Assembly (NCBI GenBank): GCA_042568205.1
Contig: JBHPJE010000007.1
Coordinates: 35 to 64,034, forward strand
Direction: 5' to 3'
DNA length: 64,000 bases
DNA from: Patescibacteria group bacterium
GTDB lineage: Bacteria; Patescibacteriota; Gracilibacteria; UBA1369; PNNO01
Part shown: positions 8,009-58,581 of the stretch, one piece after another
How the letters are laid out: each line of letters opens with the position of its first letter
Position numbering within the stretch: position 1 is the stretch's first letter
Program-made: the position numbers and the translations under genes
Notes under the pieces: generated by a model
Databases searched by the model: none
The model's input: only the letters and a program-made list of their open reading frames with translations
Told to the model about the DNA's origin: nothing

Positions 8009-9045
8009 GTGAAATAAGAATAAATCTTAAGAAAATTGCGGAAAATTATCTTACGTTAAAAACATATTTAAAAGCTAAGAAATTAAATATTACACCTGTT
8101 GTAAAAGTAGTTGCAGGTGATGTTAGGATTGTAAAAATTATTGAAGAGAATGGTGCCGACTCTATAGGCGACTCAAGAATTAAAAATATTAAAAAATTTA
8201 AAAAGGCAGGAATAAAATCAAAATTTCTTCTTTTAAGACTTCCATCTAAAACTGAAATTGATGAAGTAGTTGAATTCGCTGACTATAGCCTTAATAGCAG
8301 TATTGAAATTATTTCAATGATCGATAATGAAGCAAAAAAACAAAAAAAACATCATGGGATAGTATTGATGATTGAAATGGGAGATCTAAGAGAAGGAATT
8401 GATTCTGAAAAAGCATTAGAGATTTCAAAAAAAATATCTAAAATGAAGAATGTATATCTAAAGGGGATTGGTGCTAATTTTGCTTGTTATGGGGGAGTAA
8501 TTCCTTCAGATCAGAAAATGCGGATGCTAAGCTCTATTTCAAAAAGTTTCCCTAATATTGATTGGGTTTCTGGTGGTAATTCAGCAAATATCAGTTGGGT
8601 GAGAAATTCAAAAGATATGTACAAGATAAATCATTTACGATTAGGTGAATCTATAATGCTTGGTTGTGAAACTTTGCTCCGAAAGCCAATACCAGACTTA
8701 AATCTTGATGCCTTTGTATTAACAGCTGAAGTTATTGAATTCGAGAAAAAAAAGTCAGCTCCTGATGGAGAAATTGCGCAAAATGCTTTTGGTGAAATTC
8801 CACAAATTCAAGATGAAGGGTTAATTTATCGAGCAATACTTGATATTGGTAGGCAGGATATTGATTGTGATGGGATTACTCCCTTAAAGAAGAATATAAA
8901 AGTATTAGGTGCAAGTAGTGATCATTTGATTATAAAGAGCGATTCAATCCTTAAAATAGGAGATAAAATAAAATTCATCCCAAATTATTCTGCTTTGCTA
9001 AGGATTATGACGTCACCTTATGTTAAAAAGGCGTATACTGTATAA
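8005..9045 (+). CDS. PLP-dependent amino-acid racemase, alanine-racemase N-terminal fold (COG3457/ornithine-racemase-like)
   Basis: The 346-aa ORF has a candidate PLP lysine in PVVKVVAG and a TIM-barrel-like pattern. It lacks the canonical Alr VVKANAYGHG motif. It overlaps the ligase gene by 4 nt (ATGA). Confidence 0.65.
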   Translation: MSEIRINLKKIAENYLTLKTYLKAKKLNITPVVKVVAGDVRIVKIIEENGADSIGDSRIKNIKKFKKAGIKSKFLLLRLPSKTEIDEVVEFADYSLNSSIEIISMIDNEAKKQKKHHGIVLMIEMGDLREGIDSEKALEISKKISKMKNVYLKGIGANFACYGGVIPSDQKMRMLSSISKSFPNIDWVSGGNSANISWVRNSKDMYKINHLRLGESIMLGCETLLRKPIPDLNLDAFVLTAEVIEFEKKKSAPDGEIAQNAFGEIPQIQDEGLIYRAILDIGRQDIDCDGITPLKKNIKVLGASSDHLIIKSDSILKIGDKIKFIPNYSALLRIMTSPYVKKAYTV

Positions 9046-26034: not shown

Positions 26035-27462
26035 ATGTCCCACAAAGATCTATACAGAAATATTTTGTTACGCTTAAAACCAACATTTAAACTACCTTTA
26101 TTTAAAACTTGGTTTGCAGATACAGGAATAATTGAAAAAGGGGACGACTATATAGTAATTGGACTTCCAACTCCATTCGCAAAGCAATGGGTTTTAGATA
26201 AATATCATATTAAAGTTTTACAAGCTGCTCAGGAAGAAGATCCATCAATAAAAGAAGTACAATATAAAGTACATTCTGAATTTGCTAATGAAGATTCTCC
26301 TCATAAAGTAAATCTTGAAAGTATTTTAGGAACTGACGATATTAAACAGGTAAGAAAAGTAAGAAATAAAGATAATGAAGTTCATGTTGGTAAAAAAGGA
26401 TTGAAAAGCCGAAAATTAAGCATCAAACATACTTTAGACAACTTTGTGATTGGTAAAGATAACAAACTTGCTCATACTGCTTGTCTTGCTGTTTCAAATA
26501 TGCCAGGAGGTATTTATAATCCTTTATACATCTTCTCAGGTGTTGGGCAGGGTAAGACTCATCTTTTACAGGCGACAGGACGAGAGATCTTAAAGAATGA
26601 TCCAGATGCTCGAATTGTTTATATGACTGCAGAACAATTTACTAACGAAATTATTGAAGCTATTGGAAAAAGAAGAACTAAACAGTTTAAAGATAAATAT
26701 AGAACAGTTGATTGTTTCATTCTTGATGACATTCAATTTTTAGAGAATAAAGATATGAGTCAAATGGAATTCTTCCATACATTTAATGATTTATATGACT
26801 CTAATAAGCAGATTATCCTTTCATCTGATACTCCACCAAAAGATCTGAATGGATTTAAAGAAAGACTGATGGGTAGATTTGGAATGGGTACAGTTGTTGA
26901 AATTCTACCTTCTGATTATGAAACGCGCTTAGCAATTCTTAAACAAAGATGCTCTGATCTTCAAATGATAATTGATGATGATGTTTTAGAGTGTATTGCT
27001 TTCCATGTTGAAACTAATGTTAGAGATTTAGTTGGAGTTTTGATGCAAGTAATTTCACATTCTAATTTAAATGGGGCAGATCCTACAAAAGAGCTGGTTG
27101 CAACGATTTTAGAAACTCAACATCAGATTCAGGTTACACATAATGGTGTTTCAGTTGCTTCGATGAATGCAAAAGGTAAAACTATTCAGGAAATTATTGA
27201 TTCAGTTGCTCATTATTTTCATATTTCAAACGATGATCTGATTGGACCTCTTCGAAAAAAAGAAGTTATGATGCCTCGTCAAGTTTGTATGTACCTGATT
27301 AAAAGAGAGCTTGATCATTCATATGAAAAAATTGGTGAAGTTTTTGGTGGACGGAATCATTCAACAGTTTTACATGCTTTCAACACCATTTCTAGGAAGA
27401 TAAAAACAGACCCAAGACTTTTGCGTGATGTACAAGCCATAAAGCAAGGTCTTGGATTTTAA
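26035..27462 (+). CDS. dnaA: chromosomal replication initiator DnaA
   Basis: The 475-aa ORF has the AAA+ Walker A GVGQGKTHLL, DDIQFL and the C-terminal DNA-binding domain (GGRNHSTVLHA). Confidence 0.95.
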   Translation: MSHKDLYRNILLRLKPTFKLPLFKTWFADTGIIEKGDDYIVIGLPTPFAKQWVLDKYHIKVLQAAQEEDPSIKEVQYKVHSEFANEDSPHKVNLESILGTDDIKQVRKVRNKDNEVHVGKKGLKSRKLSIKHTLDNFVIGKDNKLAHTACLAVSNMPGGIYNPLYIFSGVGQGKTHLLQATGREILKNDPDARIVYMTAEQFTNEIIEAIGKRRTKQFKDKYRTVDCFILDDIQFLENKDMSQMEFFHTFNDLYDSNKQIILSSDTPPKDLNGFKERLMGRFGMGTVVEILPSDYETRLAILKQRCSDLQMIIDDDVLECIAFHVETNVRDLVGVLMQVISHSNLNGADPTKELVATILETQHQIQVTHNGVSVASMNAKGKTIQEIIDSVAHYFHISNDDLIGPLRKKEVMMPRQVCMYLIKRELDHSYEKIGEVFGGRNHSTVLHAFNTISRKIKTDPRLLRDVQAIKQGLGF

Positions 27463-32596: not shown

Positions 32597-32670
32597 TAGG
32601 CGGTACCGGATTTGAACCGGTGTCCTTCGGGTTCCTAGCCCGACGAGCTACCAGACTGCTCCAACCGCCA
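32597..32670 (-). tRNA. tRNA-like gene with an initiator-type body and anticodon loop CUAGGAA (anticodon AGG), no encoded CCA
   Basis: The minus strand folds as UGGCGGU UG GAGC AGUCUGGUA GCUC G UCGGG CUAGGAA CCCGA AGGAC ACCGG UUCAAAU CCGGU ACCGCCU A. All stems are perfect except a U1-U72 mismatch. It has A11:U24 and three G:C pairs closing the anticodon stem, as in bacterial tRNA-fMet. Confidence 0.7.
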
Positions 32671-32828: not shown

Positions 32829-32914
32829 TCGAGGCGAGAGGATTTGAACCTCCGACTTCTGGAGTAGTTAGATGATAATAACTCCAGTGCGCTACCAGAA
32901 TGCGCCACGCCTCG
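32829..32914 (-). tRNA. tRNA-like gene with a Pro-type body and a 12-nt-expanded anticodon arm, no encoded CCA
   Basis: The minus strand folds as CGAGGCG UG GCGC AUUCUGGUA GCGC A CUGGA GUUAUUAUCAUCUAACUAC UCCAG AAGUC GGAGG UUCAAAU CCUCU CGCCUCG A. Acceptor, D and T arms are canonical (C1:G72 and A73, as in bacterial tRNA-Pro). Between the 5-bp anticodon stem strands there are 19 nt instead of 7. Confidence 0.5.
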
Positions 32915-36324: not shown

Positions 36325-38091
36325 ATGGCTGAAGAAGAAGACAAAAAAAATCAGCAAAATAATCCAGCAAAACCTGTAAAAGATCAGGGTAGTAAACCTG
36401 TGTCTGATGATCAGGCTAATTTTAAGAAAAAGCGTAGAAGAAGACCTAGAAAAAAGAAAAAACCAAGTACAGAAGCTGAGGTAAAAGAAACCCCTAAAAC
36501 TCGACCTGAGCCAGAACAGGAAAATATACCCAAAAAGAAACGAAGAAGACGTCCTAGAAAAAGAAAACCAAAAACAGAAGAACCTGTAGAGGAATCACCT
36601 TTTGCTGATGAAGATATTTTTTCAATAGATGATGAGCAAGCTCCAGAAGAGAAAGCACCCACTATTGATGAGGAAGTCCCATTGGATACTTCAATGGACG
36701 AGGATACTTCAATGGATGAGGATATATTTTCAGACGAAGAAGTAACTTCAGAAATTGAACCAGAAATTGAAACAGAAATTGAAACAGTGGAAGAAGATAC
36801 AGATGAACAATTTCTTGCTAGTGATGATAGTACAGATTCAACTGAAGAAGAATTGCTTGAAGAACCAGCTGCGACTCCTTCAGTACCAGCTGAAGTTCAA
36901 CCTCCTCCAGAATTACCTGATGAAATTGCACCTGAAGAACCTACGCCAGAAAAAGATAAATCTTCAGATTTTGCTTTAAAAGAAGAAGAAGCACAAGGAC
37001 CTGTTGGATGGAATCAACTAAAAGATGCAATAAAACAAGATCATGTAGAAACAGAGCAACAAATGGATGCAGGAGTTATGCCTGTTCCAGTCCCAGTTGC
37101 TGAAACTGCAGAGCCTGAAGAAGAAGCTCCTGAAGAAGAAACTTTTGTAGAACCTGCATCTGAACCTGAGGCGATTCCTGAAGTAGAGCCAGTACCTATT
37201 ACAGAACAACCTGCTGAAGAATTAGCAGCAGATGAAGATGCTGAGAAACAAGAAATAGTTAAAATAATTATAAAGTATGCTTTAGGAGGATGCGCAGTAA
37301 TTGCGATTATTGCAGGTATTTTCTTATTCAAAATTCCCCAAACAATCATAGGATTTTCACAAGATTTACTAAATGATGGTGAAACAAAACAAATTGATCA
37401 AGTTGAAGATACAGTTTCTGATATAACATCAAAACCTGATACTACAAGACCTGATTCAGATATTAAAGATGGGACAGGAACAGCATTGATTTCTGGAGAT
37501 CAGATACCAAAAGTAAAAAAGGTTCCAACATCTGTTCAAACAGTATTTAAAATTGGACTTCCAGAGGTTCAAGTTTCAGATTCGGATAGAATTGCGACTT
37601 ATTTAAACGTTCTCAATGAACTACAAAATGGCTTTGAGACTGATATAAATCAATTGTTAGACGCTGCTAATAACAGAGCTAGTGCAATTTCTATTCATTT
37701 ACGTGAACTTAATGGACTTTTAGCTGAAGCTCAGTTTACTTATGAAAATTTAAAAGAAGAAGCTGATGAAATTAAAGTTCAATACAATAAAGTTTCAAAT
37801 GAAAAAGACATTTTAGAGGAATCATTCTTTGTTTCTTTAGATAGTCTTCAATCAAATGAATCAAACCAAATTCTTAATGAATTTGTTGAAATTTCAAAAG
37901 CTCAAATTAATTTAAAAGCCGAATTTAATGCTCTTACTAAGATATCTGGCATGTACGATACTGCACTTAATAATATGGAGGCGAGAATTAAAGATATCCA
38001 GGCAAATAAAGAAGCATTGGTTAAAGGAGTGAAAATTGTGGACATTAAAGGATCTGATTTAGATTTGATTATTCAAGAAGGGGAACTATAA
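36325..38091 (+). CDS. hypothetical bitopic membrane protein with a polybasic/acidic disordered N-terminus and a coiled-coil C-terminus
   Basis: The 588-aa ORF has a duplicated KKKRRRRPRK patch (36424-36465 and 36532-36572). It also has acidic repeats (TSMDEDTSMDED, EIEPEIETEIET) and one TM helix (ALGGCAVIAIIAGIFLF). The C-terminal half is heptad-like. Confidence 0.55.
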   Translation: MAEEEDKKNQQNNPAKPVKDQGSKPVSDDQANFKKKRRRRPRKKKKPSTEAEVKETPKTRPEPEQENIPKKKRRRRPRKRKPKTEEPVEESPFADEDIFSIDDEQAPEEKAPTIDEEVPLDTSMDEDTSMDEDIFSDEEVTSEIEPEIETEIETVEEDTDEQFLASDDSTDSTEEELLEEPAATPSVPAEVQPPPELPDEIAPEEPTPEKDKSSDFALKEEEAQGPVGWNQLKDAIKQDHVETEQQMDAGVMPVPVPVAETAEPEEEAPEEETFVEPASEPEAIPEVEPVPITEQPAEELAADEDAEKQEIVKIIIKYALGGCAVIAIIAGIFLFKIPQTIIGFSQDLLNDGETKQIDQVEDTVSDITSKPDTTRPDSDIKDGTGTALISGDQIPKVKKVPTSVQTVFKIGLPEVQVSDSDRIATYLNVLNELQNGFETDINQLLDAANNRASAISIHLRELNGLLAEAQFTYENLKEEADEIKVQYNKVSNEKDILEESFFVSLDSLQSNESNQILNEFVEISKAQINLKAEFNALTKISGMYDTALNNMEARIKDIQANKEALVKGVKIVDIKGSDLDLIIQEGEL

Positions 38092-44529: not shown

Positions 44530-44790
44530 ATGAAAAATATTATGAAAAAATCTAAAATATATTTAGTCATCATATTTGTAATTATTCTTTTAATTGCTAT
44601 TGATTTAGGATTATTTAGAAAATTTGCTCCTAACAATTATTCAGTAATAAGACATTTATACTGCATTACAGTAAAGCAGGAAAATTACGATCACATTTCG
44701 TCGTCATATCGCTCATCTGATTCTTCAGTAGATTATATGGGTATTTATCAATGTGGAAATGAGTATCATGATACTCATCCTCTTGTTTAG
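44530..44790 (+). CDS. hypothetical small membrane protein (86 aa)
   Basis: The ORF has one N-terminal TM helix. Support is weak. Confidence 0.35.
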   Translation: MKNIMKKSKIYLVIIFVIILLIAIDLGLFRKFAPNNYSVIRHLYCITVKQENYDHISSSYRSSDSSVDYMGIYQCGNEYHDTHPLV

Positions 44791-45521
44791 TTTCTAAACT
44801 GCCCCGCAAACTCCCAGACCATTTTAAATATGGTTCTTTGCGTTTCTGCTATTTCTGTTGATTTGATTATCATGCCGATTAGGCCTTCGTTGAAGGAGAT
44901 GATTGAGATTTTATTATCGTAAATATTGATTTCGTTTGAGAAGTTGTATTTGTTTCGGGGAATTAGACGAATATTTCTGTTGTATTTGCGGTTTTCTTTT
45001 TTAACTTTAAGTCCGGCTTCGTCGAGTGGGGCGATTCCGCGAAGATAGATTCCTTTTTTTGCACGTTTTTCAACATATTCTTTGTCATAATCTGGCCAGA
45101 ACTCACGAATTTCCTCAGAATTGGCGTAATTGAGGATTTCAGTCTTGCTCCTGAGTGTATCTTCATAAATTGCTTTAATACCGTTAATACCTTCAAAATA
45201 ACGTATAGTTGGATGAGGTGTTTCACCATGCAATCGTTTTAATTCAGGAAGAACGTTTTTTAGATCATTAGTTCGTTGGTGGGTGATTTTATAAATCGTA
45301 TCTGGTTTAACAGCTGTAAAATATTTTATTTTATTTTTTGTGAAATAATTTATATAACCTTTCTTAATTAACTTTTCTAAAATGTCATAAGTTGTAACTC
45401 TGTTTACATGAGACTGTCTGGCAATATCTGAAACAGGGGATGATCCTAATTCTAAATTTGCTAAATAAATGTTTGCTTCTTTCTCTGTTAGTCCTAGATT
45501 TTTTAGAACATCGATGATCAT
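44787..45521 (-). CDS. TrmB-family transcriptional regulator
   Basis: The 244-aa ORF has the N-terminal winged-helix pattern LGLTEKEANIYLANLELGSSPVSDIARQSHVNRVTTYDILEKLIKKG. It is divergent from glnA. Confidence 0.75.
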   Translation of the reverse strand: MIIDVLKNLGLTEKEANIYLANLELGSSPVSDIARQSHVNRVTTYDILEKLIKKGYINYFTKNKIKYFTAVKPDTIYKITHQRTNDLKNVLPELKRLHGETPHPTIRYFEGINGIKAIYEDTLRSKTEILNYANSEEIREFWPDYDKEYVEKRAKKGIYLRGIAPLDEAGLKVKKENRKYNRNIRLIPRNKYNFSNEINIYDNKISIISFNEGLIGMIIKSTEIAETQRTIFKMVWEFAGQFRN

Positions 45522-48149: not shown

Positions 48150-48184
48150 AAAAAAGCCCTGCTGAGCAAGTCAGCAGAGCTTTT
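48150..48184 (-). terminator. Rho-independent terminator (bidirectional hairpin) after the giant-gene operon
   Basis: Stem gc(c)ctgctga/tcagcag(a)gc (48156-48180) has a gcaag loop. It has a T6 run on the minus strand (plus-strand A-run at 48150-48155) and a T4 run on the plus strand. Confidence 0.65.
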
Positions 48185-48202: not shown

Positions 48203-51200
48203 CTAGAACACTTCAGAAGTTACATTTACTAATTCTCCAAGGATTGGAGGAGTGTTTAAATAGATTCTATTATCGAATCTAATTAAGATTGCAGCTTCTT
48301 CTTTGGTAGGATCACCAGCGAATGTTCTGTATTTAAATAAATGTTGGATATCACCATAGATTGATCCATAGTGAACTAATGGATTTTCATTATATTGTTC
48401 GTTTTCAGCACAAGTTCCTTCACACATTCTTCCACCTTCACCATTTTCACCCTCTTGAACGAAGAACACACCATTAGTTTCTTCAACTCCAGGAGCTACT
48501 AAGATATCTCCTCCAATAACAATTAATGCTAATGAAGGGATTTGTCTTGGATCAGTTAGATCAGAAGGATCTCTGAATTTAATATCTTCAGTGATTTCAA
48601 CATCACCACCAATTACTACGATAGTTTGTGCACCATTACTGAATTCACCACCTAATTTTAGTTTTCCAGTATTTTTCTTTACATAAACTTTACTAGAACT
48701 ATCAGGCAATGAATTGCTTCCATTAATTTCTGTTTTATTATCAAGAACTCTATCGTATCTTGCAAATAGATCAATATTTCGTGCGATATTCTGAACAATT
48801 GCAAATTGAGTTAAGTCATCAGAAGTTTTAAGAGTAATTTCACAAATTAATGATGAAATTCTTTCAATATCTTCATATCCTTCAATTTCTTGGTCTTTAT
48901 CTTTACATAATCTATCACTAAATGCAGATAGAATACTTTCACCTTCACCAGATTTAACTAAATCAGGAGTATCAATATCAGGTCTGATAATAGGAACTGG
49001 TACATTTTCGATTTCTGAACAAGATAAAGTATCAACACCATAATCAAATGGATTTTCTAAGAATACTTCACCACCAGATCTAACAATGATGAAAGGACAA
49101 GGGATAATAACTTCAGCTTCGTTATTATAATCTTTGTCATTTTCATCGAATCCAGCTTCATCATCAAATCTAGCAACATTTGGATAGATTTCACCACAAA
49201 CTCCTTGATCAGTTAGATCATGATCTTGATCACTACAGTTAGATGGACTAACTACTGTATCAACATCACCACTATAAGTGATAAGAACTTCTCTTCGTGG
49301 TGGAACATTTTCAATTTCAACACCTGAACGATCTCCAATATCTCCGTTGTAACAAAGATCATCAGAAGTATCATCACAATCTTCAATAATTCCTTCACCT
49401 TCTACCCATATTTCCATTGAACCTTCATCATAATAGATTCTTCCACCTTCTGGTGCATCATCTAAATCTGACATAGTACTTGCAATGTAACCTTGGATAT
49501 AACCATCACGACCAATTGTGTCAGTGATTGTTACATCTTGTTCTTCATCATTTCTGTGTTCGTACATAATTCTGTAATCAACATTGTTATCACTAAAGTT
49601 GATTGCAGCTCTTGAACTAAATGAAGCAGAACCTGCATCTTCATCTTTTACATTTTTATCAAATTGAGGAGGATAAACAACTCTATCTAAATCATCATTA
49701 CATTCATCTTCCCATTCAGGTACCCAAACTTCTACATGATCAGCACCTTCAAGGTCTTCTTCTTCAATAATGAAGCAGTCATCTTCATCAACATCTACTA
49801 AGAATTCATCGTCTCCATCTACAGAAACATAAACTCCAGTAGATTGAACTGGCCAATCTGTATCATCTACACAGATTTCATTATCACGACCTCTTTCAAA
49901 TTCTTCTTCTTCAAGTCTGAATCGTTCACATTCACGTTCAGGACTTGTGATTTCATCTTCACAATCTTCATCATTATATTCAATTAAAGCTTTAGCTTCT
50001 AAAATATCCTCAGGAATTGATCCTGGGAAATTGAAATCATCGAAATCAATACAAGGATCACCTTGAGTATTAGTACTAAATACTATTTCTCCGTCTCTAA
50101 TTACATTCCATTCAATTTCATTGTTATAACCTTGAACAGTTGTTTCAACGTTAATATCTACGCAATATTCTTTTTCTTCATCTGTATCGAATACATCATA
50201 TTGAGGACGGAAGTCTAAATCTAAACAAACACCTCCATATTGATGTTCTTCAGTTTCATAACTGTCTGCACAAGCTGCAACATCAGTATCAAGTACATCA
50301 ATTGTCATTGTTCCTTGTTCTTGAGCTCTTGCTTCAATTTGAACATTTGCAGGAGCAATAGCACATTGAGGACTTGTTACCCAAATTGAATCTCTAAAGT
50401 CTATATTAGTATTAGAGTAACAATATTTGATTAATGGTTGCTCACCTTCAAACATGAATGGATTATTATCTGTATCAGTTGGTCCTTCTAGAACAATAGG
50501 TACCCAATTATTTAACTCTACTAATGCAGTATTTAATTTACCTGGATTAGTTTTAAGTTCTTTACATTCAGGTGGCTCAGTGTCTGGTTGATAAATAATT
50601 TTAATTGAATCTCCACAAGGAAGTTCCCAGCTTTCTTCATCATTAATATCATTGATTGCTGTAATTCTAATAATTGAACTAGTTTTTGCAGGATTAGGTA
50701 ATCCATTTAAATAAACAGTTCTACTAGTAGTTACTAAATCTTCAGATCCAGGTCCTCCTGGAGTTTCTGAAATAGTGATTCCTCCACGTTTTGAAGGATC
50801 TACATAATATCTATAACCTTCAATTACATTAGGATCAGAATCTAATCTAACTTCTAATGGTTCGTTAACTAAAGGTTCATCAACTGTGATAGTTGCAGGT
50901 ACAAATACTGCACCTTTCCCATCATCAGCTTCAGTTGGTCTGACAATTTCTAATAAATTACAATATCCTGGTTCGTCATCATCTGGTGGTTCTGGAGTTG
51001 CTTCGAATTCAAGGTAAATTACTACATAATAATCTTGAGATGAATTAAACCATCCATTTTTACTACTTCCTGTTCTAACAGTTACACCTTCATGAGTTAA
51101 AGAAGTTAAATCTGCAGGTGCTAAATGTCCATAACCTTCTAATTTACTAATATGCGCATCTACTGGTTGAAGAGTAAATGGCACTCCATTAGAAGTGATA

Positions 51201-51769
51201 TCTACGTCTGCCCAAATTTTTCTTGGTTTTGTATTATCTGCAGAAATTAATGCTCTTGGGCTAAATGATGTTTGTGGAGTTGAACTTCCCCAATGATCTA
51301 CTTTTAATCCAACGCCTTTTGCATAAATATCATCTCCACCTATTGCATTGTTATGCATATAAATCCACAATCCGAATTTTTTTGTTTCATTTGGATCTCC
51401 CGAAAAATATAGTTCATGTCGAATATCATCCTGGTCAAACTGATATGAAGGATAATTATCCCATGGAGATGGATAAGGCATTCCAGCGAACTGAGCTCTT
51501 GCTTTTTCAATATAAACAAACTGCCTTTCATCATATAATCTACCATCTTCAGTTGGGTAGTTATAATAATTGTTGAAAGAAGGAAAGCTTAAACCTGTAC
51601 CATAAGGCCCATTAAAACTAATTCCATCGTTATGGAAATCTTGACAGCTGCCTCCTGGGCAAGAAGAAGATTCATTCGTAGCTCCATAATCAGCAACAGC
51701 AACAGATGCAGTTAGCATAGTTGCAATTGAGAGAGCTCCGATAATGAGTAATTTAATTTTTGTTTTCAT
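48203..51769 (-). CDS. 1,188-aa acidic, Cys-rich secreted protein of unknown function
   Basis: The Sec signal peptide is MKTKIKLLIIGALSIATMLTASVAVA. The mature part is strongly Asp/Glu-rich with many Cys. The C-terminal region has beta-helix-like repeats (IVVIGGDVEITEDI; LIVIGGDILVAPGV). I recognise no catalytic motif. Confidence 0.7.
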   Translation of the reverse strand: MKTKIKLLIIGALSIATMLTASVAVADYGATNESSSCPGGSCQDFHNDGISFNGPYGTGLSFPSFNNYYNYPTEDGRLYDERQFVYIEKARAQFAGMPYPSPWDNYPSYQFDQDDIRHELYFSGDPNETKKFGLWIYMHNNAIGGDDIYAKGVGLKVDHWGSSTPQTSFSPRALISADNTKPRKIWADVDITSNGVPFTLQPVDAHISKLEGYGHLAPADLTSLTHEGVTVRTGSSKNGWFNSSQDYYVVIYLEFEATPEPPDDDEPGYCNLLEIVRPTEADDGKGAVFVPATITVDEPLVNEPLEVRLDSDPNVIEGYRYYVDPSKRGGITISETPGGPGSEDLVTTSRTVYLNGLPNPAKTSSIIRITAINDINDEESWELPCGDSIKIIYQPDTEPPECKELKTNPGKLNTALVELNNWVPIVLEGPTDTDNNPFMFEGEQPLIKYCYSNTNIDFRDSIWVTSPQCAIAPANVQIEARAQEQGTMTIDVLDTDVAACADSYETEEHQYGGVCLDLDFRPQYDVFDTDEEKEYCVDINVETTVQGYNNEIEWNVIRDGEIVFSTNTQGDPCIDFDDFNFPGSIPEDILEAKALIEYNDEDCEDEITSPERECERFRLEEEEFERGRDNEICVDDTDWPVQSTGVYVSVDGDDEFLVDVDEDDCFIIEEEDLEGADHVEVWVPEWEDECNDDLDRVVYPPQFDKNVKDEDAGSASFSSRAAINFSDNNVDYRIMYEHRNDEEQDVTITDTIGRDGYIQGYIASTMSDLDDAPEGGRIYYDEGSMEIWVEGEGIIEDCDDTSDDLCYNGDIGDRSGVEIENVPPRREVLITYSGDVDTVVSPSNCSDQDHDLTDQGVCGEIYPNVARFDDEAGFDENDKDYNNEAEVIIPCPFIIVRSGGEVFLENPFDYGVDTLSCSEIENVPVPIIRPDIDTPDLVKSGEGESILSAFSDRLCKDKDQEIEGYEDIERISSLICEITLKTSDDLTQFAIVQNIARNIDLFARYDRVLDNKTEINGSNSLPDSSSKVYVKKNTGKLKLGGEFSNGAQTIVVIGGDVEITEDIKFRDPSDLTDPRQIPSLALIVIGGDILVAPGVEETNGVFFVQEGENGEGGRMCEGTCAENEQYNENPLVHYGSIYGDIQHLFKYRTFAGDPTKEEAAILIRFDNRIYLNTPPILGELVNVTSEVF

Positions 51770-51794
51770 TTTATAAAGTTAAATAAATAATTAA

Positions 51795-52325
51795 TTAAAG
51801 ATTGCCAAGACCTTCGGTCTTTTCATTTCCTTTGTTTTCTTCTCTAGCTGGAATAATTCCTAAAGTTAATTCCAAATCTTTTGTTTTTTCTAAAGAAACA
51901 TCTTCTCCGCCTATATTAAGGTATGAACTTTCATCTACTTCAAAATTAACAATACTTTGTTTAACGACATCAAACTTTAAAGTTGCTAATGTTGTTGTTT
52001 TGCTATCAAAATACTCTTTTGATAAATCATAAGAAATTGTATCTCCTATTGTTGCTACTGACACGCCATCAGCAGTTTCATTTTTTAGAATTTTTAAAGA
52101 TTCATTATCGAAAGTTACTTTGATTTTTCCGGATTTAGCTTCTTTTGGATTAAGAAGATTAATTTGTACTTCCGGATTATCTTTTTCGAAGTAGAAATCG
52201 CTTTCGCTGACTACTTCTACTGTAGAAGGTTGTGCATTCATATAAAACCAACCGCCAACTAGTATAACTAGTGCAATGACTGCTAGTGATATGAATCCAT
52301 TTCGTTGTTTTGTAGATGATTTCAT
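51795..52325 (-). CDS. 176-aa N-terminally membrane-anchored beta-rich protein of unknown function
   Basis: The ORF has the TM helix FISLAVIALVILVGGWFY followed by a ~130-aa beta-sandwich-like region (TLATLKFDVVKQ). It ends in KTEGLGNL. It lies 25 nt upstream of the 1,188-aa gene and 40 nt downstream of the 2,024-aa gene. Confidence 0.6.
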   Translation of the reverse strand: MKSSTKQRNGFISLAVIALVILVGGWFYMNAQPSTVEVVSESDFYFEKDNPEVQINLLNPKEAKSGKIKVTFDNESLKILKNETADGVSVATIGDTISYDLSKEYFDSKTTTLATLKFDVVKQSIVNFEVDESSYLNIGGEDVSLEKTKDLELTLGIIPAREENKGNEKTEGLGNL

Positions 52326-52365
52326 TTTTTTATTTTGTTATAAATATAATTAATTTTATTTAAGT

Positions 52366-55300
52366 TTATAAATTTCCTGTACCTTCAGTTTGAGGACCTT
52401 GAACAGCTGTATCAGGTTGTGGATTTTGTGGAGTTCCACCTCCTGTTGTTTGATCTTGAGTAGGAGCTCTATGTTGAGTAGGAGTTTTGTGTGGTGTTTC
52501 TCTTCTTGGTGGGGTTGGAGTCTTTCTTCTTTTAAATTTATGTCCTGAGTAAATTCCAGCGGTAAATTGACCATAAGCTTTCTTTTCTGTTCTACCAACT
52601 CTGATATTTACATCAGCTCCAGCACCAAATAATCTTCCTCGTTTCACCCCTTTAAGAGTGATTCCGATTCTTTGATGAACAGCTACTGTTCCATTTCCAC
52701 ATTTTAAGTATGGACCAGCATAGATTTTAGTTTCAGCTACATGGAATATGTATTTATTATCGAATGTATATGTTGATTCTCCATTTAACTGGGCGTTTCG
52801 GATTCCAAGAACAATTGTCTTGAAGTCGTTAAATGCAGCTGCGTGAGTTTTTAATACTGTTTCTAAATTCTTTCCATTTAGATTTTGAATTATCTTTGTT
52901 AATCCTTTAAATTTTGGAACTCCAAGTATTGATAATAATGGTGAAACACCATTTCTATCGTACATTGAAAGTAAAAGTTGAGATAATTCAGATTCTAAGA
53001 ATTTCTTCTTAACACTTGTTTTTTCAAGATTCTTAGTTGGAAGAGGAGACATCATTCTTAATATAAGATTTGCTGCTGCTCTTTCATTTGCATCCGGAGA
53101 ATTTACATTAAGCCTGGTTGGTTTAATCATTTTTAATGTATCTTTGAATGCCTTATTGTCAGTATCTGAACCAAATGCTGTAGGCATTGATTGTAAGCTT
53201 CCGAATCTATGTGTATATGAACCATATTTAATACCTGCCTTCAAAGGAAGACTCTTTTTACTTTTTAGGAATTTTTGTAATTGTTCATGATTTTGCGGCA
53301 TACAAAGTAAAAGATAGTTTGCTATCCCATTAACTGAAGCTCCTTTATATTTTTTTCTAATTTCTTTCCATTGATCTCTATTATTTTCAATGAATTTTCT
53401 AATAAATCTCTTCATATATCTCATAAATAATCTGTTCCTAACTTGTAATCTTCGAGTGATTACTTTTGGATATTTTTTATTATGATCAAGAAGTTTCGTG
53501 AAACTCTTATCTAATAAATAAGAATAAATAAGATTTTTTTCTTGTTCATTCAAGGATGCAAGTTTCGTGCCTTTCGTATAAATGCCGTTTTGCTTTGCAT
53601 ATTGTTTATATCTTGCAGCAATTGTTCTAAACCATGTTGTTTTAAATTTATTTTCTCCATCTGGTGTTTTTAATTTTCCAACACCAATGTTGAAAGGTCT
53701 TCTGAATTTTTTATCAGCATAAATTAAATCACCAAATTTCTTTAACTGTAATTTTTTAGTTCGAACACGTTCAATGTTTCTATATTTCATTGCATCATGT
53801 AAGTCAGTAGTCATTTTTTGAGCCTGAGGCCTTGTATAATCAGCTTTAAGGTCAATAAATGATTCATGATTTCTTTTGCTGTTTTTATATTCAGCTAAAG
53901 TCATTACATTTGAAGGTCTTTTTGTCATAACAGGTCTTCCATTTACAAGTTTTGTATCGTAGTGTTGCCTTCCTAATGCTTCATTTTTTACCCTTTGATA
54001 TTTTTCACCTTTGAATTTGTATAACGACCAAGGTGAAGAATTTCTTATAGTTCCATTATCAAGATCCGGATTTGCTTTGAATGCAATTACATGCAAATTC
54101 ATTGCTCCTCTTTTTTGGAATGGATATCTATAAGTACTTCTTGTTACATATAAATCTTTAACTAAATTAGCTGAAAGTAAGAACCTGTTATTTGCTCTAT
54201 CAAGAATCAATCCTCTCGCTTTCATTGCAGGATCCATTAAAACTTCAACATTACTATCCATAGTTTGTAATGGTGTTAAAGCAAGTAACCATCCTTTTGG
54301 ATTTCTTGGATCTTTTACTTTTTCAACGTGAATGTTTAATTTAGAAAAAGTTTTTTTAGCTAATTCAAAAGTACTTTGGAAAGTATCAACTTGTCCTTTT
54401 TTCTTTGGTTTTTTGTTTGGACCTTCTTGACCACTTCCTCGACTATATTTACCATCAGCAATATTTGCACTTTTTTCACCAGTTCTTCTTGCAACACCTG
54501 ATCTTCCTAAATTTGAATCAAAATATAAAATTCCACTCGTAGCTTCAATTACATATGGTGCAATTTTAAAATTTCTTAATCCTTGTTTTCTTAGTTTTTG
54601 TCTTAATTCAAATTCAACAGCTTTTCGTTGCATGTAATCTGAATATTTTGGATGCGCATGCCTAACTACATAAGTAACTTCAGTTCCTGGTATTTTAAAA
54701 GTGATATATGCACCAACACCAACTGAAGCAAGTTTTCCTGATTTCGCATCAATACCTAGAAATGCACCAGCACCAATTCCAAGCAGCCAAGGTACTTTCA
54801 TCTTTCTTTTTGCATATTCAACCCAATCTTTTCTGGCTTCTTTATAAAGATCAACTATAGTTGCATTGTCTTTTATTTTTGCCTTCGTTTTAATTTTCTT
54901 CATTACTCTACCAAAAGTCGGATGATTAAGAATTAATGAAGCTGCTTTATCAATTTTTCCATCATCAATGGCTCTATCAATATCTTTGATATTTCTTAAT
55001 TCCATACTTTCTTTAACTTGACGTTTTTCTGATCTATCTCTGTCCCATATGCCACCAACAGCACCACCTACACCTACAGTCTTTCCTTTATAATCAGCTC
55101 CTGCACTTATACTGAAATACAAATTATAATCTGTTTTTCCAATAGGCATTTCAAGCCCTATTGCAGCACCTGCAAAAGTAGCTGTAGCACCTACTGTATA
55201 TCTGAAACTTAATTTTTTACCTGCTTTAATTGCACCGTTAATTCCTAAAAATGGAATACATCTTTCTTGAATTGTTCTTCCTTGCTGACCAAATACACCA

Positions 55301-58300
55301 AATGTAAAATATTGTGGCTGTCCATTAATTTCAAATAATTTTACTGAAGCAGTCATCCCGGCACCAAATCTTTGAGTTCTTACGTTTGCAGGAATTGTAC
55401 CATTTGTAATACCAATAACAGCTAAACGAACTTTTTGTTCTACTGCTTTTAATAGATAAACAGGGCATCCATTTTTTAGTGCAGCTAATTGAGCTTTTCT
55501 TTCTAATGGTCTGGTTGAAAGATTTTTATTCATAACTTCTGACCATTTTTTAGATGTTTCAATTTTTCTACCTAACATAAATCCAACTCTAATTAACTTT
55601 AATAGAGCAGTTTTACCTTTTAATTGGTCTGGTTCAATGTTATTTAGTTTCAATGCCTTATATAGGACATCTAGTATTTCAACCTTATCAAGATTCAATA
55701 ATGAATTCATATCCATTCCAATTTTATTTTCAATTCCTAATTCTTTAACTAATTTTGGAATAACTTTATGAAAATTTGCATCAGTAGCATTCATTATTAC
55801 TGAAGTCAGTCCATATTCAATATAATCATTTGTTTTATTTAATACTTTTGTTGGATTAGGCTGATAAACTGTAGTTCCAGGAGCTCTGTGAGAAGTTTTT
55901 TCTAGCATATCCAGATAACCTCTATCCTGAGCCATGAATTTTTCAAATTCACTTGGATTAATAGTGATTTGACCTAAATGAGCCATTGTAATTTTTTTGC
56001 CTTTTTTCCAAACAGCTCTTCCATGCCATAATCCTTGCCACCAGTTAAAGTTTTCTTTAACCACTGAACCAGTAGGTGTAAAGATAGATCTAATAAATAA
56101 TCTGGCTTTCATCCCCGCGCTTAATGAAGCTCTAACTTTTTCCCATTTTTTAAAGTCTGCTTTAGCATGTTCTCCTTTAACCCAAAGTCTAGCTTTTGTT
56201 TGTTGGATTGTAGCTAATGCTTCCAGCCATCCAAATTTTGGTAACTTAACTAATACATATTTATTATCATTAACTTTTTTAAGACATTTTTCAGCAAGAA
56301 GTTTTCTTAGACCAAATGCCATGAATAATAATTTTAATCCGCCATTTGATTTAAGCATTTCACCCGGATTAAAATCAGGGCTTTCTTGTTTATAGAATTG
56401 TTCTTTAATTTTTGCCTGCATTAAATTACTAGCACCAATATCTATAGATGTAGGTGCGTTATCTTCTTTATGAAGAAGTGAACCTAAACTATAATAATTT
56501 AGCCCTTGTGGTTCTTTTTCAATTTGTTCTACACCAGCAAGCATTGGTCTATACACATCAGTCTTTGTTTCTCGATGGACCTTAAATGCTTCAGGTTTTT
56601 TAAATTCCTCTAAAGCATCAAATATTCGTGCAATACCTAAAGCAATAGTTCTTAGTTTTCTCCATTCTTTAACAATTGCTTTTTCTTCTTTCCCAATAGG
56701 ATTATCTTCGTTGATATGTCTAACCATCATCTGCTTTTCAACTCGATAATAATCTTTAATAAATTGTTTATATCCACCCTCATATAATTCTCTTTTACCA
56801 TCTAAGCTAACTTTGAAAAAGTCTTCTGCATATAATCTTGAATTCAATTGTTTTTGAATAATTTCCTGAATATAATGTCTTTTTTGTGTAGGTGACATCG
56901 GATGAAAAGGAGGATTTTCTAAAATTGGGCCAATATATCTTCCTACTTTTTTCCAGATATCAACGTTTTTAAAATGTTCATCATTTCTTAATTGTTCTGG
57001 TACGTCATATTGAGCATTTTGAAAGATATAACCGTAATAAAAATCGTCAATTAAACTATCCGCTGCTTCTCTTTTTCTTTCTCTTTCTCTCTCTGCAGCT
57101 GTCTCTTTTAATTTAATATGATCAGGGAATGAGATTTTATAAGTAACCGCAAGTTCTTTTAATTTTTTATCAATTTCTATTAACAATTTATTTTTATCAG
57201 CTTCTTTTTCAAGACCGTAAGCTTTGTTAATTATTAGTTGAATTGAATTCAAGGTTTTTCCATATTCGGTTTTATTTTTTATATTTTCTGTTTCTTCGAT
57301 AAAGTAATCTAATCTTTTTTGATTCAATATAATCTTTTCATCTGCTGTTCCCTGATTTGTTTCAGTAGCCACATTCAGCTTAGCTGCGCTTTTAGCTTTT
57401 GGTTTTTTAGTAATTGGCTTTGCTGCATCAGGATTATATGCACCAGCTTCATATTTAATATTGCTAATTACAGTATTATGAAAAATTCTTACTCTTTGAG
57501 GTCTTTTATTTCCTTTTAGAGATGATTTAATATAAAAAGTTCCTGAACCTTTATGGTATACAGCCTCTTCTTTAAACTTTCTTCCACCTGGGCTTACACC
57601 ACTTACCGTGAAGCTAATATGAATATTTCCACCTTGCAGTTTACTTAAATCAAACAGGTCATGAATTCTAACTGTCTTTTCAGCTTTTCTATCAATTCTA
57701 CCTTTGGGAGTTAAAAATTTAACAATGTAACCCTTCTTGTGTTTGTGTAAGTACTTTTTATTTGTAACTAATTGATCAACTGCTTTTGTTGGGTCCTCTT
57801 TTAGCATTTTTTGTACATTCTTTTTCAATACTTTTTTCTTTGCTTTTGTTCTTTTTACAACTGCTTCTTTCTTTTTACCCAGTTCTGCTCTTAGTTTTCT
57901 TATATCTTCAATGATTGCTCTACGAATATCTAAACTGTTCGAAGCTTCTTTCAAATCAACTTTCCAAAATGTTCCTTTTTTATTATGAAATGTTAATTTA
58001 CCACCTTCATCCAAAGTGACAGTACATGGTTTGTTATCTCCAACTTTTTTTGCATTTTTCCCAATAAGATAATTAAGATCTTTAAATGCTGTTTTAAAGA
58101 ATCTTAAAAATGCTTTAGATTTTTTTACGTGTTTAGGTAATTTTTTAAAACTTCTTGAAAGTAAACCTAATGCAATTTTTCCTGAATCTAGTCCTCTTCC
58201 TTTAATTTCAAAAGTTGATTTGTTTTTTATGTATTTGTCGAATCCTTCTTCATAACCTTCTAATTCATCATTTATTTGTTTTATGGTTTGTTTCTTTCTT

Positions 58301-58440
58301 TCAAGTTTATCTTCTTTTTGTTCCCTAGGCGATTGAATTAGAACACCTAAAGGTTTTTTAAAGACATGTTTTGATTCGCCAGTTAAAAGATTTTTACTAG
58401 CGAAATAATTCAGTAAATGAATGTAGTTTTTGTTTATCAT
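52366..58440 (-). CDS. 2,024-aa lysine-rich giant protein of unknown function
   Basis: This is an uninterrupted 6.1-kb ORF with no N-terminal signal peptide or TM helix. It is very Lys/Arg-rich and has three Gly/Ala-rich glycine-zipper-like segments. Its Pro/Thr-rich tail ends in QTEGTGNL. Confidence 0.7.
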   Translation of the reverse strand: MINKNYIHLLNYFASKNLLTGESKHVFKKPLGVLIQSPREQKEDKLERKKQTIKQINDELEGYEEGFDKYIKNKSTFEIKGRGLDSGKIALGLLSRSFKKLPKHVKKSKAFLRFFKTAFKDLNYLIGKNAKKVGDNKPCTVTLDEGGKLTFHNKKGTFWKVDLKEASNSLDIRRAIIEDIRKLRAELGKKKEAVVKRTKAKKKVLKKNVQKMLKEDPTKAVDQLVTNKKYLHKHKKGYIVKFLTPKGRIDRKAEKTVRIHDLFDLSKLQGGNIHISFTVSGVSPGGRKFKEEAVYHKGSGTFYIKSSLKGNKRPQRVRIFHNTVISNIKYEAGAYNPDAAKPITKKPKAKSAAKLNVATETNQGTADEKIILNQKRLDYFIEETENIKNKTEYGKTLNSIQLIINKAYGLEKEADKNKLLIEIDKKLKELAVTYKISFPDHIKLKETAAERERERKREAADSLIDDFYYGYIFQNAQYDVPEQLRNDEHFKNVDIWKKVGRYIGPILENPPFHPMSPTQKRHYIQEIIQKQLNSRLYAEDFFKVSLDGKRELYEGGYKQFIKDYYRVEKQMMVRHINEDNPIGKEEKAIVKEWRKLRTIALGIARIFDALEEFKKPEAFKVHRETKTDVYRPMLAGVEQIEKEPQGLNYYSLGSLLHKEDNAPTSIDIGASNLMQAKIKEQFYKQESPDFNPGEMLKSNGGLKLLFMAFGLRKLLAEKCLKKVNDNKYVLVKLPKFGWLEALATIQQTKARLWVKGEHAKADFKKWEKVRASLSAGMKARLFIRSIFTPTGSVVKENFNWWQGLWHGRAVWKKGKKITMAHLGQITINPSEFEKFMAQDRGYLDMLEKTSHRAPGTTVYQPNPTKVLNKTNDYIEYGLTSVIMNATDANFHKVIPKLVKELGIENKIGMDMNSLLNLDKVEILDVLYKALKLNNIEPDQLKGKTALLKLIRVGFMLGRKIETSKKWSEVMNKNLSTRPLERKAQLAALKNGCPVYLLKAVEQKVRLAVIGITNGTIPANVRTQRFGAGMTASVKLFEINGQPQYFTFGVFGQQGRTIQERCIPFLGINGAIKAGKKLSFRYTVGATATFAGAAIGLEMPIGKTDYNLYFSISAGADYKGKTVGVGGAVGGIWDRDRSEKRQVKESMELRNIKDIDRAIDDGKIDKAASLILNHPTFGRVMKKIKTKAKIKDNATIVDLYKEARKDWVEYAKRKMKVPWLLGIGAGAFLGIDAKSGKLASVGVGAYITFKIPGTEVTYVVRHAHPKYSDYMQRKAVEFELRQKLRKQGLRNFKIAPYVIEATSGILYFDSNLGRSGVARRTGEKSANIADGKYSRGSGQEGPNKKPKKKGQVDTFQSTFELAKKTFSKLNIHVEKVKDPRNPKGWLLALTPLQTMDSNVEVLMDPAMKARGLILDRANNRFLLSANLVKDLYVTRSTYRYPFQKRGAMNLHVIAFKANPDLDNGTIRNSSPWSLYKFKGEKYQRVKNEALGRQHYDTKLVNGRPVMTKRPSNVMTLAEYKNSKRNHESFIDLKADYTRPQAQKMTTDLHDAMKYRNIERVRTKKLQLKKFGDLIYADKKFRRPFNIGVGKLKTPDGENKFKTTWFRTIAARYKQYAKQNGIYTKGTKLASLNEQEKNLIYSYLLDKSFTKLLDHNKKYPKVITRRLQVRNRLFMRYMKRFIRKFIENNRDQWKEIRKKYKGASVNGIANYLLLCMPQNHEQLQKFLKSKKSLPLKAGIKYGSYTHRFGSLQSMPTAFGSDTDNKAFKDTLKMIKPTRLNVNSPDANERAAANLILRMMSPLPTKNLEKTSVKKKFLESELSQLLLSMYDRNGVSPLLSILGVPKFKGLTKIIQNLNGKNLETVLKTHAAAFNDFKTIVLGIRNAQLNGESTYTFDNKYIFHVAETKIYAGPYLKCGNGTVAVHQRIGITLKGVKRGRLFGAGADVNIRVGRTEKKAYGQFTAGIYSGHKFKRRKTPTPPRRETPHKTPTQHRAPTQDQTTGGGTPQNPQPDTAVQGPQTEGTGNL

Positions 58441-58581
58441 GATTTTTGTTTTTAATATTTATTTAAACTATTACTATATTTTATCAAATTTTTGGCTTTA
58501 CGTCAACGATATTAGGTAGGTTTTTCTGTAAATATGCTTTATTTTCTTGTACAGTGAAGTTAATAACTAACAAATTGTGAG

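Follow-up and report, generated by a model that had tools for sequence, protein, structure and literature searches.

A vertically inherited giant-protein cassette in Peregrinibacteria, with co-varying C-terminal tags and a possible place in the cell envelope

Introduction

What is the function of a block of three genes that takes up about 10 kb of a genome of roughly 1-1.4 Mb, is found at one locus lineage-wide, changes quickly and lacks annotated relatives, as would be expected of a surface structure that defines a lineage? This question is raised by a cassette located in a 64,000-nucleotide stretch of DNA (the window in what follows; contig JBHPJE010000007.1, positions 35 to 64,034) from a bacterium of the Patescibacteria group. 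Its three open reading frames (ORFs), here ORF1, ORF2 and ORF3, encode a giant protein without a signal peptide, a small protein with an anchor segment and a giant, acidic protein with a signal peptide. The original prediction, which was made from the letters of the window, took them for an orphan operon encoding a dedicated envelope or host-contact machine, of a kind to be expected in a small-genome symbiont.

The organism is a member of the Candidate Phyla Radiation (CPR; Candidatus Peregrinibacteria/Peribacteria), in line with the predicted small-genome, symbiont-type bacterium. The CPR makes up a large share of bacterial diversity, and its members are believed to live in attachment to cells of other organisms. 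To our knowledge, the molecules of the CPR-host interface are almost unknown outside the type IV pili of Saccharibacteria.

Conservation of the locus

The three ORFs are found on the minus strand, all with ATG starts, at 58440..52366 (ORF1, 2024 amino acids, aa), 52325..51795 (ORF2, 176 aa) and 51769..48203 (ORF3, 1188 aa), and the gaps between them, of 40 nucleotides (nt) between ORF1 and ORF2 and 25 nt between ORF2 and ORF3 by arithmetic from these coordinates, are as originally described. In 16 related loci, homologues of all three genes are found with their order unchanged, which means that these are real genes and not chance ORFs. An alignment-based scan of one genome per GTDB species recovered nine loci, titled Candidatus Peregrinibacteria, Candidatus Peribacteria or Patescibacteria group (a genome scan with a single ORF3 sequence gave no match), and the order of the triad is kept in all nine, as well as in five further metagenome loci. 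The co-occurrence that had been anticipated was borne out in every related locus examined. The term “orphan”, by contrast, holds only insofar as no annotated relatives exist, since unannotated ones are many. Among 5.8 billion clustered proteins, four close homologues of ORF1 and nine of ORF3 were found, none of them named, and a repeat of the ORF1 search with an ORF1 profile provided one extra protein.

The homologues of ORF1, which are 22-69% identical, always have an ORF3-family gene immediately downstream. For example, the order tpiA (divergent), ORF1, ORF2, ORF3, holA is found in the related loci L001, L003 and L004. Four distant members of the ORF3 family (L015, L016, L017 and L018) are each located directly 3' of an ORF1-family giant, with tpiA adjoining, and holA follows the ORF3-family gene in L015 and L016, the two of these loci where it is visible in the downstream flank. 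The layout is the same at a fifth distant locus (L014), which was reached via the ORF1 homologue P0016. ORF2 is absent at L014, L015, L016 and L018, and an unrelated 69-aa lipoprotein occupies its place at L017. Given these distant cassettes without ORF2, the conserved core is the pair formed by ORF1 and ORF3, which is obligate across the lineage in the loci examined, and both ORF2 and the strong basicity of ORF1 belong to the window's subclade only. Two of the earlier claims have to be revised here, given that the “oppositely charged giants” fail as a defining trait (the isoelectric point, pI, of ORF1 is 6.2-8.1 in the distant lineages), and that ORF2 as the membrane anchor of the triad stands for the window's clade, where the anchor segment is present, and fails for the five distant loci.

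The proteins of the cassette diverge much faster than their housekeeping neighbours. The identity between the window and L001 is 90, 90 and 92% for TpiA, HolA and GlnA, and 63, 62 and 69% for ORF1, ORF2 and ORF3, respectively, and the corresponding values for L007 are 74, 74 and 85%, and 29, 34 and 45%. The same housekeeping genes border the cassette in lineages down to 51-57% TpiA identity, and the cassette is vertically inherited, at a fixed chromosomal site, across the uncultured Peregrinibacteria.

Co-variation of the C-terminal tails

In the window, ORF1 ends in ...TEGTGNL and ORF2 in ...TEGLGNL, a tag that is found in no other ORF of the window. In the related genomes, the final residues of the two proteins take other forms, which are given here for ORF1 and ORF2 in turn: ...PPSRH and ...APSRH (L007), ...AAGRR and ...AAGRR (L011), ...AQGRR and ...GGGRR (L013), ...TDF and ...IDF (L003), ...NDL and ...LEL (L020), ...STF and ...KSF (L012), ...DSI and ...DSI (L021), and ...SSV and ...FGV (L010). 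The last residue, which may be L, F, R, H, V or I, is identical in 12 of the 16 genome pairs, and in eight of the nine pairs that are left when relatives with more than 50% ORF2 identity are dropped. Permuted pairings of ORF1 with ORF2 (almost) never reach the observed similarity, whether the last 1, 2, 3 or 5 residues are compared (p<=2e-4).

A second co-varying element, [P/A]-P-x-R/D-x, is located just past the last beta-strand of both ORF1 and ORF2, with the pairs PPRRE/IPARE, PPSRH/APSRH, PGGRR/AGGRR, VPDRN/TPDRS, PPDRH/APDRE, PPSDD/IPSDE and PPPRI/VAGRI. Coordinated switches of the tags have also taken place repeatedly within clades, as in F/F vs. L/L at 70% ORF3 identity, and H/H vs. L/L.

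Synonymous codons differ at 38 of the 53 identical tail positions (for example, AGC vs. TCT for Ser, and AGG vs. CGT for Arg), so that the match between the tags is kept at the level of the protein, and this codon comparison rules out a DNA repeat or gene conversion. The domains that precede the two tails are unrelated, with an hhalign probability of 0.1%, which also rules out ORF2 as a duplicate of the C-terminal domain of ORF1. The terminal motifs were also considered as a double-glycine leader or an SH3 ligand, readings that were dropped because, by eye, they are not kept across the homologues. The layout of a sortase- or exosortase-type sorting signal (a motif, a transmembrane helix and a basic cluster) is absent from both tails, which are hydrophilic to the last residue and vary in motif between genomes. 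The simplest reading of this co-variation would be that both tails are recognised by one co-evolving partner.

At L017, the 69-aa lipoprotein found in the place of ORF2 (8318-8527, lipobox LSGC) ends in PNRDLPDTTV, which is loosely similar to the tail PGREPPPTTM of the ORF1-like protein, a similarity that is not significant alone.

Features of the three proteins

ORF3 (48203..51769, minus strand) starts with a Sec signal peptide (residues 1-26, 51692-51769), which is followed by predicted tandem beta-sandwich domains and then by a conserved C-terminal module. The signal peptide is formed by MKTKIK, a hydrophobic stretch and AVA before D, with cleavage after AVA26. The protein has 20.3% D+E, 26 Cys and a pI of 4.05, in agreement with the Sec-exported, Asp/Glu- and Cys-rich protein that had been predicted. 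Between 24 and 26 Cys are conserved, and the distant homologues stay acidic (the pI of the family is 4-5.6) and Cys-rich. Taken together, these sequence features support an extracellular location for ORF3.

The region that defines the ORF3 family is the C-terminal one (residues 700-1188, 48206..49672, minus strand), which ends in ...RFDNRIYLNTPPILGELVNVTSEVF and comprises a predicted immunoglobulin (Ig)-like sandwich at ~702-897 and a beta-rich terminal module at ~1014-1164. A hidden Markov model search with the ORF3 profile among 1.84 billion representatives returned 425 clusters at 50% identity, 178 of them below 1e-30, nearly all of which match only profile positions ~785-1166. This module, of ~400 aa, always occupies the very C-terminal end of proteins that are 1,000-2,600 aa long and start with a signal peptide. 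In addition to these two features, the family, as defined here, is marked by the end ...(R/K)(F/Y)D.R(I/V).(L/I)NTPP.L and, in the loci examined, by an ORF1-family gene directly upstream. Pfam recognised essentially nothing in 24 proteins of the family, none of which is named, and neither LPXTG nor a hydrophobic tail is present at the C-terminus of ORF3, which ends in ...NTPPILGELVNVTSEVF.

The AlphaFold2 model of the full-length ORF3, based on an alignment of 10 sequences, is poor (predicted local distance difference test, pLDDT, 51.7), and shows a string of beta-sandwich domains, for which Foldseek returned complement C3 and fibronectin, matches that indicate tandem beta-sandwiches and nothing more specific. 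For residues 695-1188, an alignment of 40 sequences that included distant members yielded a model with a pLDDT of 76.3 and a predicted template-modelling (TM) score of 0.67, in which a well-defined sandwich (~702-897) and a confident beta-rich module (~1014-1164) are joined by a helix-containing linker of low confidence. The Foldseek matches of the sandwich region in the PDB are weak (E 1.2e-3 to 3e-2, TM<=0.2), and are mostly Ig-like domains of bacterial adhesins (RspB, CLIPPER, Bbp, SdrE, CNA and RrgA). The terminal module has no structural relative in the PDB or, at E<1e-3, in BFVD by Foldseek.

Two sister loci present altered homologues of ORF3. At L011 (7532-12799), the homologue is broken into three ORFs, which may be due to a frameshift, to decay into a pseudogene or to misassembly, and at L013 (9983-15310) it is enlarged to 1775 aa, with 32 Cys.

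ORF2 (51795..52325, minus strand; pI 4.64) is found only in the window's wider clade, and is formed by a signal anchor, a beta-sandwich-like ectodomain and a tail with the tag. The single-pass topology that had been predicted is upheld by its single strong hydrophobic segment (residues 11-29, 52239-52295, Kyte-Doolittle 2.36), which is preceded by the three basic residues K2, K6 and R8, and would therefore have its N-terminus inside and its C-terminus outside the cell by the positive-inside rule. In the tail, on the same strand, motif A is IPAREE (51837-51854) and the terminal tag is TEGLGNL (51798-51818). All of the matches of the ectodomain are sub-threshold, and all are to families of Ig-like sandwiches (GMP-PDE delta, pAdhesive_8, cohesin and arrestin). 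For cohesin, E is 0.0018 in one of the 12 ORF2 homologues, and the PDB match has an E of 1.2. An extracellular position of the ectodomain is supported by these features of the sequence.

ORF1 (52366..58440, minus strand) is the core member of the cassette that has no signal peptide, and it is conserved from around residue 440 on. Each of the three ORFs is the maximal reading frame, so that no signal peptide can be hidden upstream of ORF1. The prediction of a Lys/Arg-rich protein without a signal peptide or a transmembrane helix proved correct, given that K+R account for 18.9% of the residues and D+E for 10.0% (pI 9.99), and that no 19-residue window exceeds 1.22 on the Kyte-Doolittle scale, which leaves no canonical transmembrane helix. 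At the N-terminus, the alignment reveals the motif HLLNYFA..NLL..ESK.VF (residues 8-27, 58360..58419, minus strand), which is also visible in distant homologues, and between this motif and residue ~440 the protein is variable. At L015 (2411-3088), the gene that immediately precedes that of the ORF1-like giant encodes a 225-aa protein that is weakly paralogous, and colinear, to the first ~190 residues of the giant (blastp E 0.017), and that has the N-terminal motif ...R.(V/I)FEV.G in common with it. This suggests that the N-terminal module of ORF1 may also occur as a separate protein.

The best-conserved feature of the ORF1 family is its hydrophobic, Gly-rich core. Three Gly/Ala-rich blocks, all read from the minus strand, represent the maxima of hydrophobicity and of the beta-type hydrophobic moment, and the minima of charge, in the family profile. 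Block a (residues 1005-1140, 55021..55428) is formed by amphipathic beta-strands and is the most hydrophobic and least charged, with the highest beta-moment. Block b (residues 1214-1262, 54655..54801) reads VPWLLGIGAGAFLGI...VGVGAYITF, and block c (residues 1900-1975, 52516..52743) contains an invariant K-C-x-N-G. In the homologues, these blocks reach Kyte-Doolittle values of 1.4-1.9 over 19 residues, and ORF1 has a single invariant Cys. Block a gave sub-threshold matches to PF13505 (OMP_b-brl) in two of eight homologous segments, the best with 22.1 bits (E 1.8e-4) against a Pfam gathering threshold of 28.7 bits, and the window's own segment gave no match. This likeness to membrane-inserting beta-hairpins is compositional only, with no family assignment. 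A profile search of the PDB with block a found nothing significant, the non-significant leads being a designed transmembrane beta-barrel and a bacterial gasdermin. The protein ends in a disordered tail rich in Pro, Thr and Gln (52369..52515, minus strand), with motif A (TPPRRE, 52498-52515) and the terminal tag TEGTGNL (52369-52389).

Searches for known families were in line with the claim that the cassette has no homology to tape-measure, tail-fibre, RHS/Tc, adhesin or defence families, none of which was found in the family, phage or PDB searches. No match above threshold was obtained in Pfam, NCBIfam or PADLOC for any of the three proteins, nor in Pfam with whole sets of homologues, and the profile searches of the PDB with ORF1, ORF2 and ORF3 returned nothing significant; in particular, no PADLOC model of anti-phage defence matches any of the three. 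Type V secretion is not indicated, given that ORF1 has no signal peptide and that no Autotransporter or ShlB/POTRA domain was found in Pfam.

Genomic context

Upstream of ORF1, in the divergent intergenic region that it shares with tpiA, the top-scoring site is a promoter-like sequence (TTGACG-17-TAAAAT with a TG extension, 58478..58506, minus strand) with 10 of 12 matches, a call that represents a match to a sigma-70-like consensus only. Directly 3' of ORF3, an intrinsic terminator (48152..48184, minus strand) with a 14-pair stem, a 5-nt loop and a T-run closes the operon. By these promoter-like and terminator signals, ORF1, ORF2 and ORF3 are predicted to be one transcription unit, as in the single operon with a downstream hairpin that was originally described. 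The drop in GC skew over 48-58 kb occurs because the three genes of the cassette are on the minus strand.

The flanks are formed by ordinary chromosomal genes, with tpiA, hpf, the gene of a Wzy_C protein, ribF, that of a Mur ligase and truB on one side, and holA, glnA, trmB and gatA on the other, and dnaA, groEL and the genes of RNase Y, H+-PPase and relA/spoT are found elsewhere in the window. In the window and in the neighbourhoods of L001, L003 and L004, no integrase or other phage gene flanks the cassette, and no exporter gene is found near it. The dnaA gene is located at 26035-27462 (plus strand), which places the cassette some 20-30 kb from the probable region of the replication origin.

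Downstream of trmB and near the cassette, L001 (23478-24800), the closest long relative, carries a short ORF of an RVT_1 reverse transcriptase (138 aa), together with an ORF of 150 aa and the gene of a bAvd accessory protein, a cluster that looks like a diversity-generating retroelement or the remnant of one, and the window has no counterpart of it between trmB (44787-45521) and the amidase gene. Two further ORFs of the window are a 663-aa protein with two Lamin Tail Domains (PF00932; 13556-15547, minus strand), which is likely another surface protein, and a 588-aa ORF without a Pfam match at E<=1e-5 (36325-38091, plus strand), directly upstream of relA/spoT. Finally, two tRNAs on the minus strand (32597-32670 and 32829-32914), confirmed as such by Rfam, received the doubtful ARAGORN anticodons Pro(agg) and Asn(att), respectively; the second has 86 nt, the length of a tRNA with a long variable arm, and the 2-kb block in which both are found has the window's highest GC content (0.41).

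Discussion

The reading that is preferred here, tentatively and with a chance of being right that comes close to even, is that the cassette encodes a lineage-specific cell-envelope complex of the Peregrinibacteria, in which the shared tags couple the parts contributed by ORF1, ORF2 and ORF3. In such a complex, ORF3 would be exported by Sec and folded with disulfides into a stalk of Ig-like beta-sandwiches, with its variable N-terminal part directed outward, as the distal end, and its conserved C-terminal module docked on the conserved core of ORF1. The three Gly/Ala-rich hydrophobic beta-strand blocks of ORF1 would keep this protein in or at the membrane, with its C-terminal part and tail outside the cell. 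The tail of ORF2 is extracellular by its predicted topology, and the tag that it shares with ORF1 would imply an extracellular C-terminus for ORF1 as well. ORF2 would be an accessory, signal-anchored Ig-like protein, and the tails of both ORF1 and ORF2 may fit into a single, shared receptor site, for which ORF3 is the likeliest candidate, and this would tie the secreted ORF3 to the cell. On this basis, surface attachment or contact with other cells is the likely role of the complex, a purely structural role in the envelope is nearly as likely, and the host-contact function originally proposed is plausible.

A number of observations weigh against this arrangement. The topology of ORF1 rests only on the tag shared with ORF2 and on moderately hydrophobic segments (~1.2 at most on the Kyte-Doolittle scale in the window), and its one invariant Cys, unlike the many of ORF3, means that a cytoplasmic site would fit too. 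The high conservation of the C-terminal module of ORF3 contrasts with the rapid change of the tags, so that the receptor may be located elsewhere, and the distant cassettes without ORF2 mean that coupling by tags cannot be a universal principle of assembly. A fixed location among housekeeping genes is also unusual for adhesins, and Foldseek returned only weak structural matches (E>1e-3, TM<=0.2).

A bolder form of the envelope complex, which we consider doubtful, would have the cassette encode an unrecognised, Peregrinibacteria-specific machine that spans the envelope, with a giant that has no signal peptide inserting itself through Gly-rich beta-hairpin blocks, into its own membrane or that of a partner, and with the co-evolving C-terminal tags acting as addresses. 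If true, this would represent a new principle of assembly, and possibly the long-sought physical interface between a CPR symbiont and its host.

The alternative that survives best, albeit an unlikely one, is that ORF3 forms a lattice similar to a surface layer (S-layer), for which ORF1 and ORF2 provide the anchor, much as the SlaA canopy of Sulfolobus stands on its SlaB stalk, and is thus a housekeeping part of the envelope and not a host-contact device. The slot of the cassette, fixed, vertically inherited and beside envelope genes (Mur ligase, Wzy_C and an MraY-like glycosyltransferase), would suit such a lattice, as would its presence in every relative examined and the acidity of the ORF3 family, given that S-layer proteins are typically acidic. 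These proteins are usually poor in Cys, however, whereas ORF3 has 24-26 conserved Cys, and Pfam and NCBIfam found no SLH or other known S-layer domain. The N-terminal part of ORF3, which evolves fast and varies in length within proteins of 1,000-2,600 aa, is also more in keeping with an exposed surface for interactions than with a lattice.

It is quite unlikely that the cassette is a pore or delivery device, in which ORF1 would leave the cell by an unidentified route and its Gly-rich amphipathic beta-hairpins would enter the membrane of a partner cell as a pore or conduit, with ORF3 providing adhesion. The three blocks, in which the beta-moment of ORF1 is highest and its charge lowest, are consistent with this, together with the sub-threshold OMP_b-brl matches in two of eight homologues and the barrel and gasdermin leads, and the conserved N-terminal motif of ORF1 could act as a non-Sec export signal. 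CPR bacteria also rely on partners for lipids and cofactors (PMC4736985). However, every one of these similarities is below significance, no exporter gene is nearby, no family of toxins, pore-formers or injection systems was matched, and heuristics of composition are the sole basis of the proposal.

Similarly improbable is that ORF1 is an intracellular scaffold, cytoskeleton-like or nucleic-acid-binding (cf. the HMW proteins of Mycoplasma), linked to ORF3 only genetically, with the tags read by a general factor that recognises C-termini, such as a PDZ protease. The lack of a signal peptide and of a canonical transmembrane helix, the single invariant Cys and the very basic ORF1 of the window's clade all point in this direction, although the basicity is not kept in the distant homologues (pI 6.2-8.1), the tag is common to the C-terminus of ORF2, which the positive-inside rule places outside the cell, and the hydrophobic, Gly-rich core is what the ORF1 family conserves best.

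A mobile-element or prophage remnant, in which ORF1 would correspond to a tape-measure protein and ORF3 to a tail fibre, or else a cassette for polymorphic toxins, could account for two giant proteins, for the Ig-like domains of ORF3 and for Gly-rich hydrophobic segments, which occur in tape-measure proteins too, yet this is effectively refuted by the PHROGs search (no match for ORF1 or ORF3, and only weak ones for ORF2, E>=0.02), by the tblastn search of ORF1 against 50,697 phage records (no match), by the Foldseek search of the C-terminal region of ORF3 in BFVD (none at E<1e-3), by the absence of RHS/YD repeats and TcA/TcB or toxin domains from ORF1 and ORF3 in Pfam and NCBIfam, by the conserved housekeeping flanks and by the lack of an integrase or phage genes beside the cassette.

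Returning to the envelope complex, specialists in the CPR would expect to meet many unexplained giant surface proteins, but a lineage-wide pair at a fixed locus, with co-evolving tags, is still unusual. The co-varying tags provide a concrete and cheap experimental handle on which protein binds which, and the C-terminal module of ORF3, with its 425 clusters, could become a family model for the annotation of hundreds of “hypothetical” giant proteins.

Comparison with known systems

In the literature searched, the ORF1 and ORF3 pair, its fixed locus, the C-terminal family module and the tags are not described. The closest precedent by lineage is the general description of large, Cys-rich extracellular proteins of Peribacteria, with a proposed role in attachment (Anantharaman et al. 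2016, PMC4736985), which covers a 14-gene cluster and 20 proteins. As a class description, these proteins resemble ORF3, being of the same phylum, large, rich in Cys and provided with a signal peptide, and having no functional prediction; unlike the present cassette, they are not described as an ORF1 and ORF3 pair at tpiA-holA, nor with the C-terminal module or shared tags. The lineage is also described in the literature with features of the Gram-positive type, such as sortase and an S-layer.

The fibrillar adhesins of Gram-positive bacteria (MSCRAMM/CNA-type: SdrG, Bbp, CNA, RrgA and RspB) are similar to the predicted form of ORF3 in being secreted and in having what may be, in ORF3, a stalk of Ig-like beta-sandwiches, and they provide the best, albeit weak, matches to its residues 702-897. 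MSCRAMMs bind linear peptide tails by the insertion of a strand, which offers a possible model for the reading of the tags. On the other hand, the cassette lacks sequence homology to these adhesins, an LPXTG signal for sortase and any known adhesive domain, and ORF3 differs from them in its richness in Cys, its own unique C-terminal module and its giant partner without a signal peptide.

The cohesin-dockerin system of the cellulosome is similar in concept, given that short C-terminal modules common to several proteins are matched, in a lineage-specific manner, to one receptor on an anchored scaffold. In the cassette, however, the cohesin matches are far below threshold, no dockerin match or dockerin repeats were found, and the tags are linear peptides of 5-7 residues and not folded modules.

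Finally, the Sulfolobus SlaA/SlaB and Mycoplasma pneumoniae P1/HMW operons combine a very large surface protein with a partner that anchors it to the membrane or acts as a scaffold, in organisms that have a small genome, no wall or an atypical envelope. The cassette differs from both in its domain content, with no homology found, and we know of no use of shared C-terminal tags in either of them. In comparison with these systems, the cassette is rated as a non-homologous version of anchored surface-protein complexes that are already known in kind.

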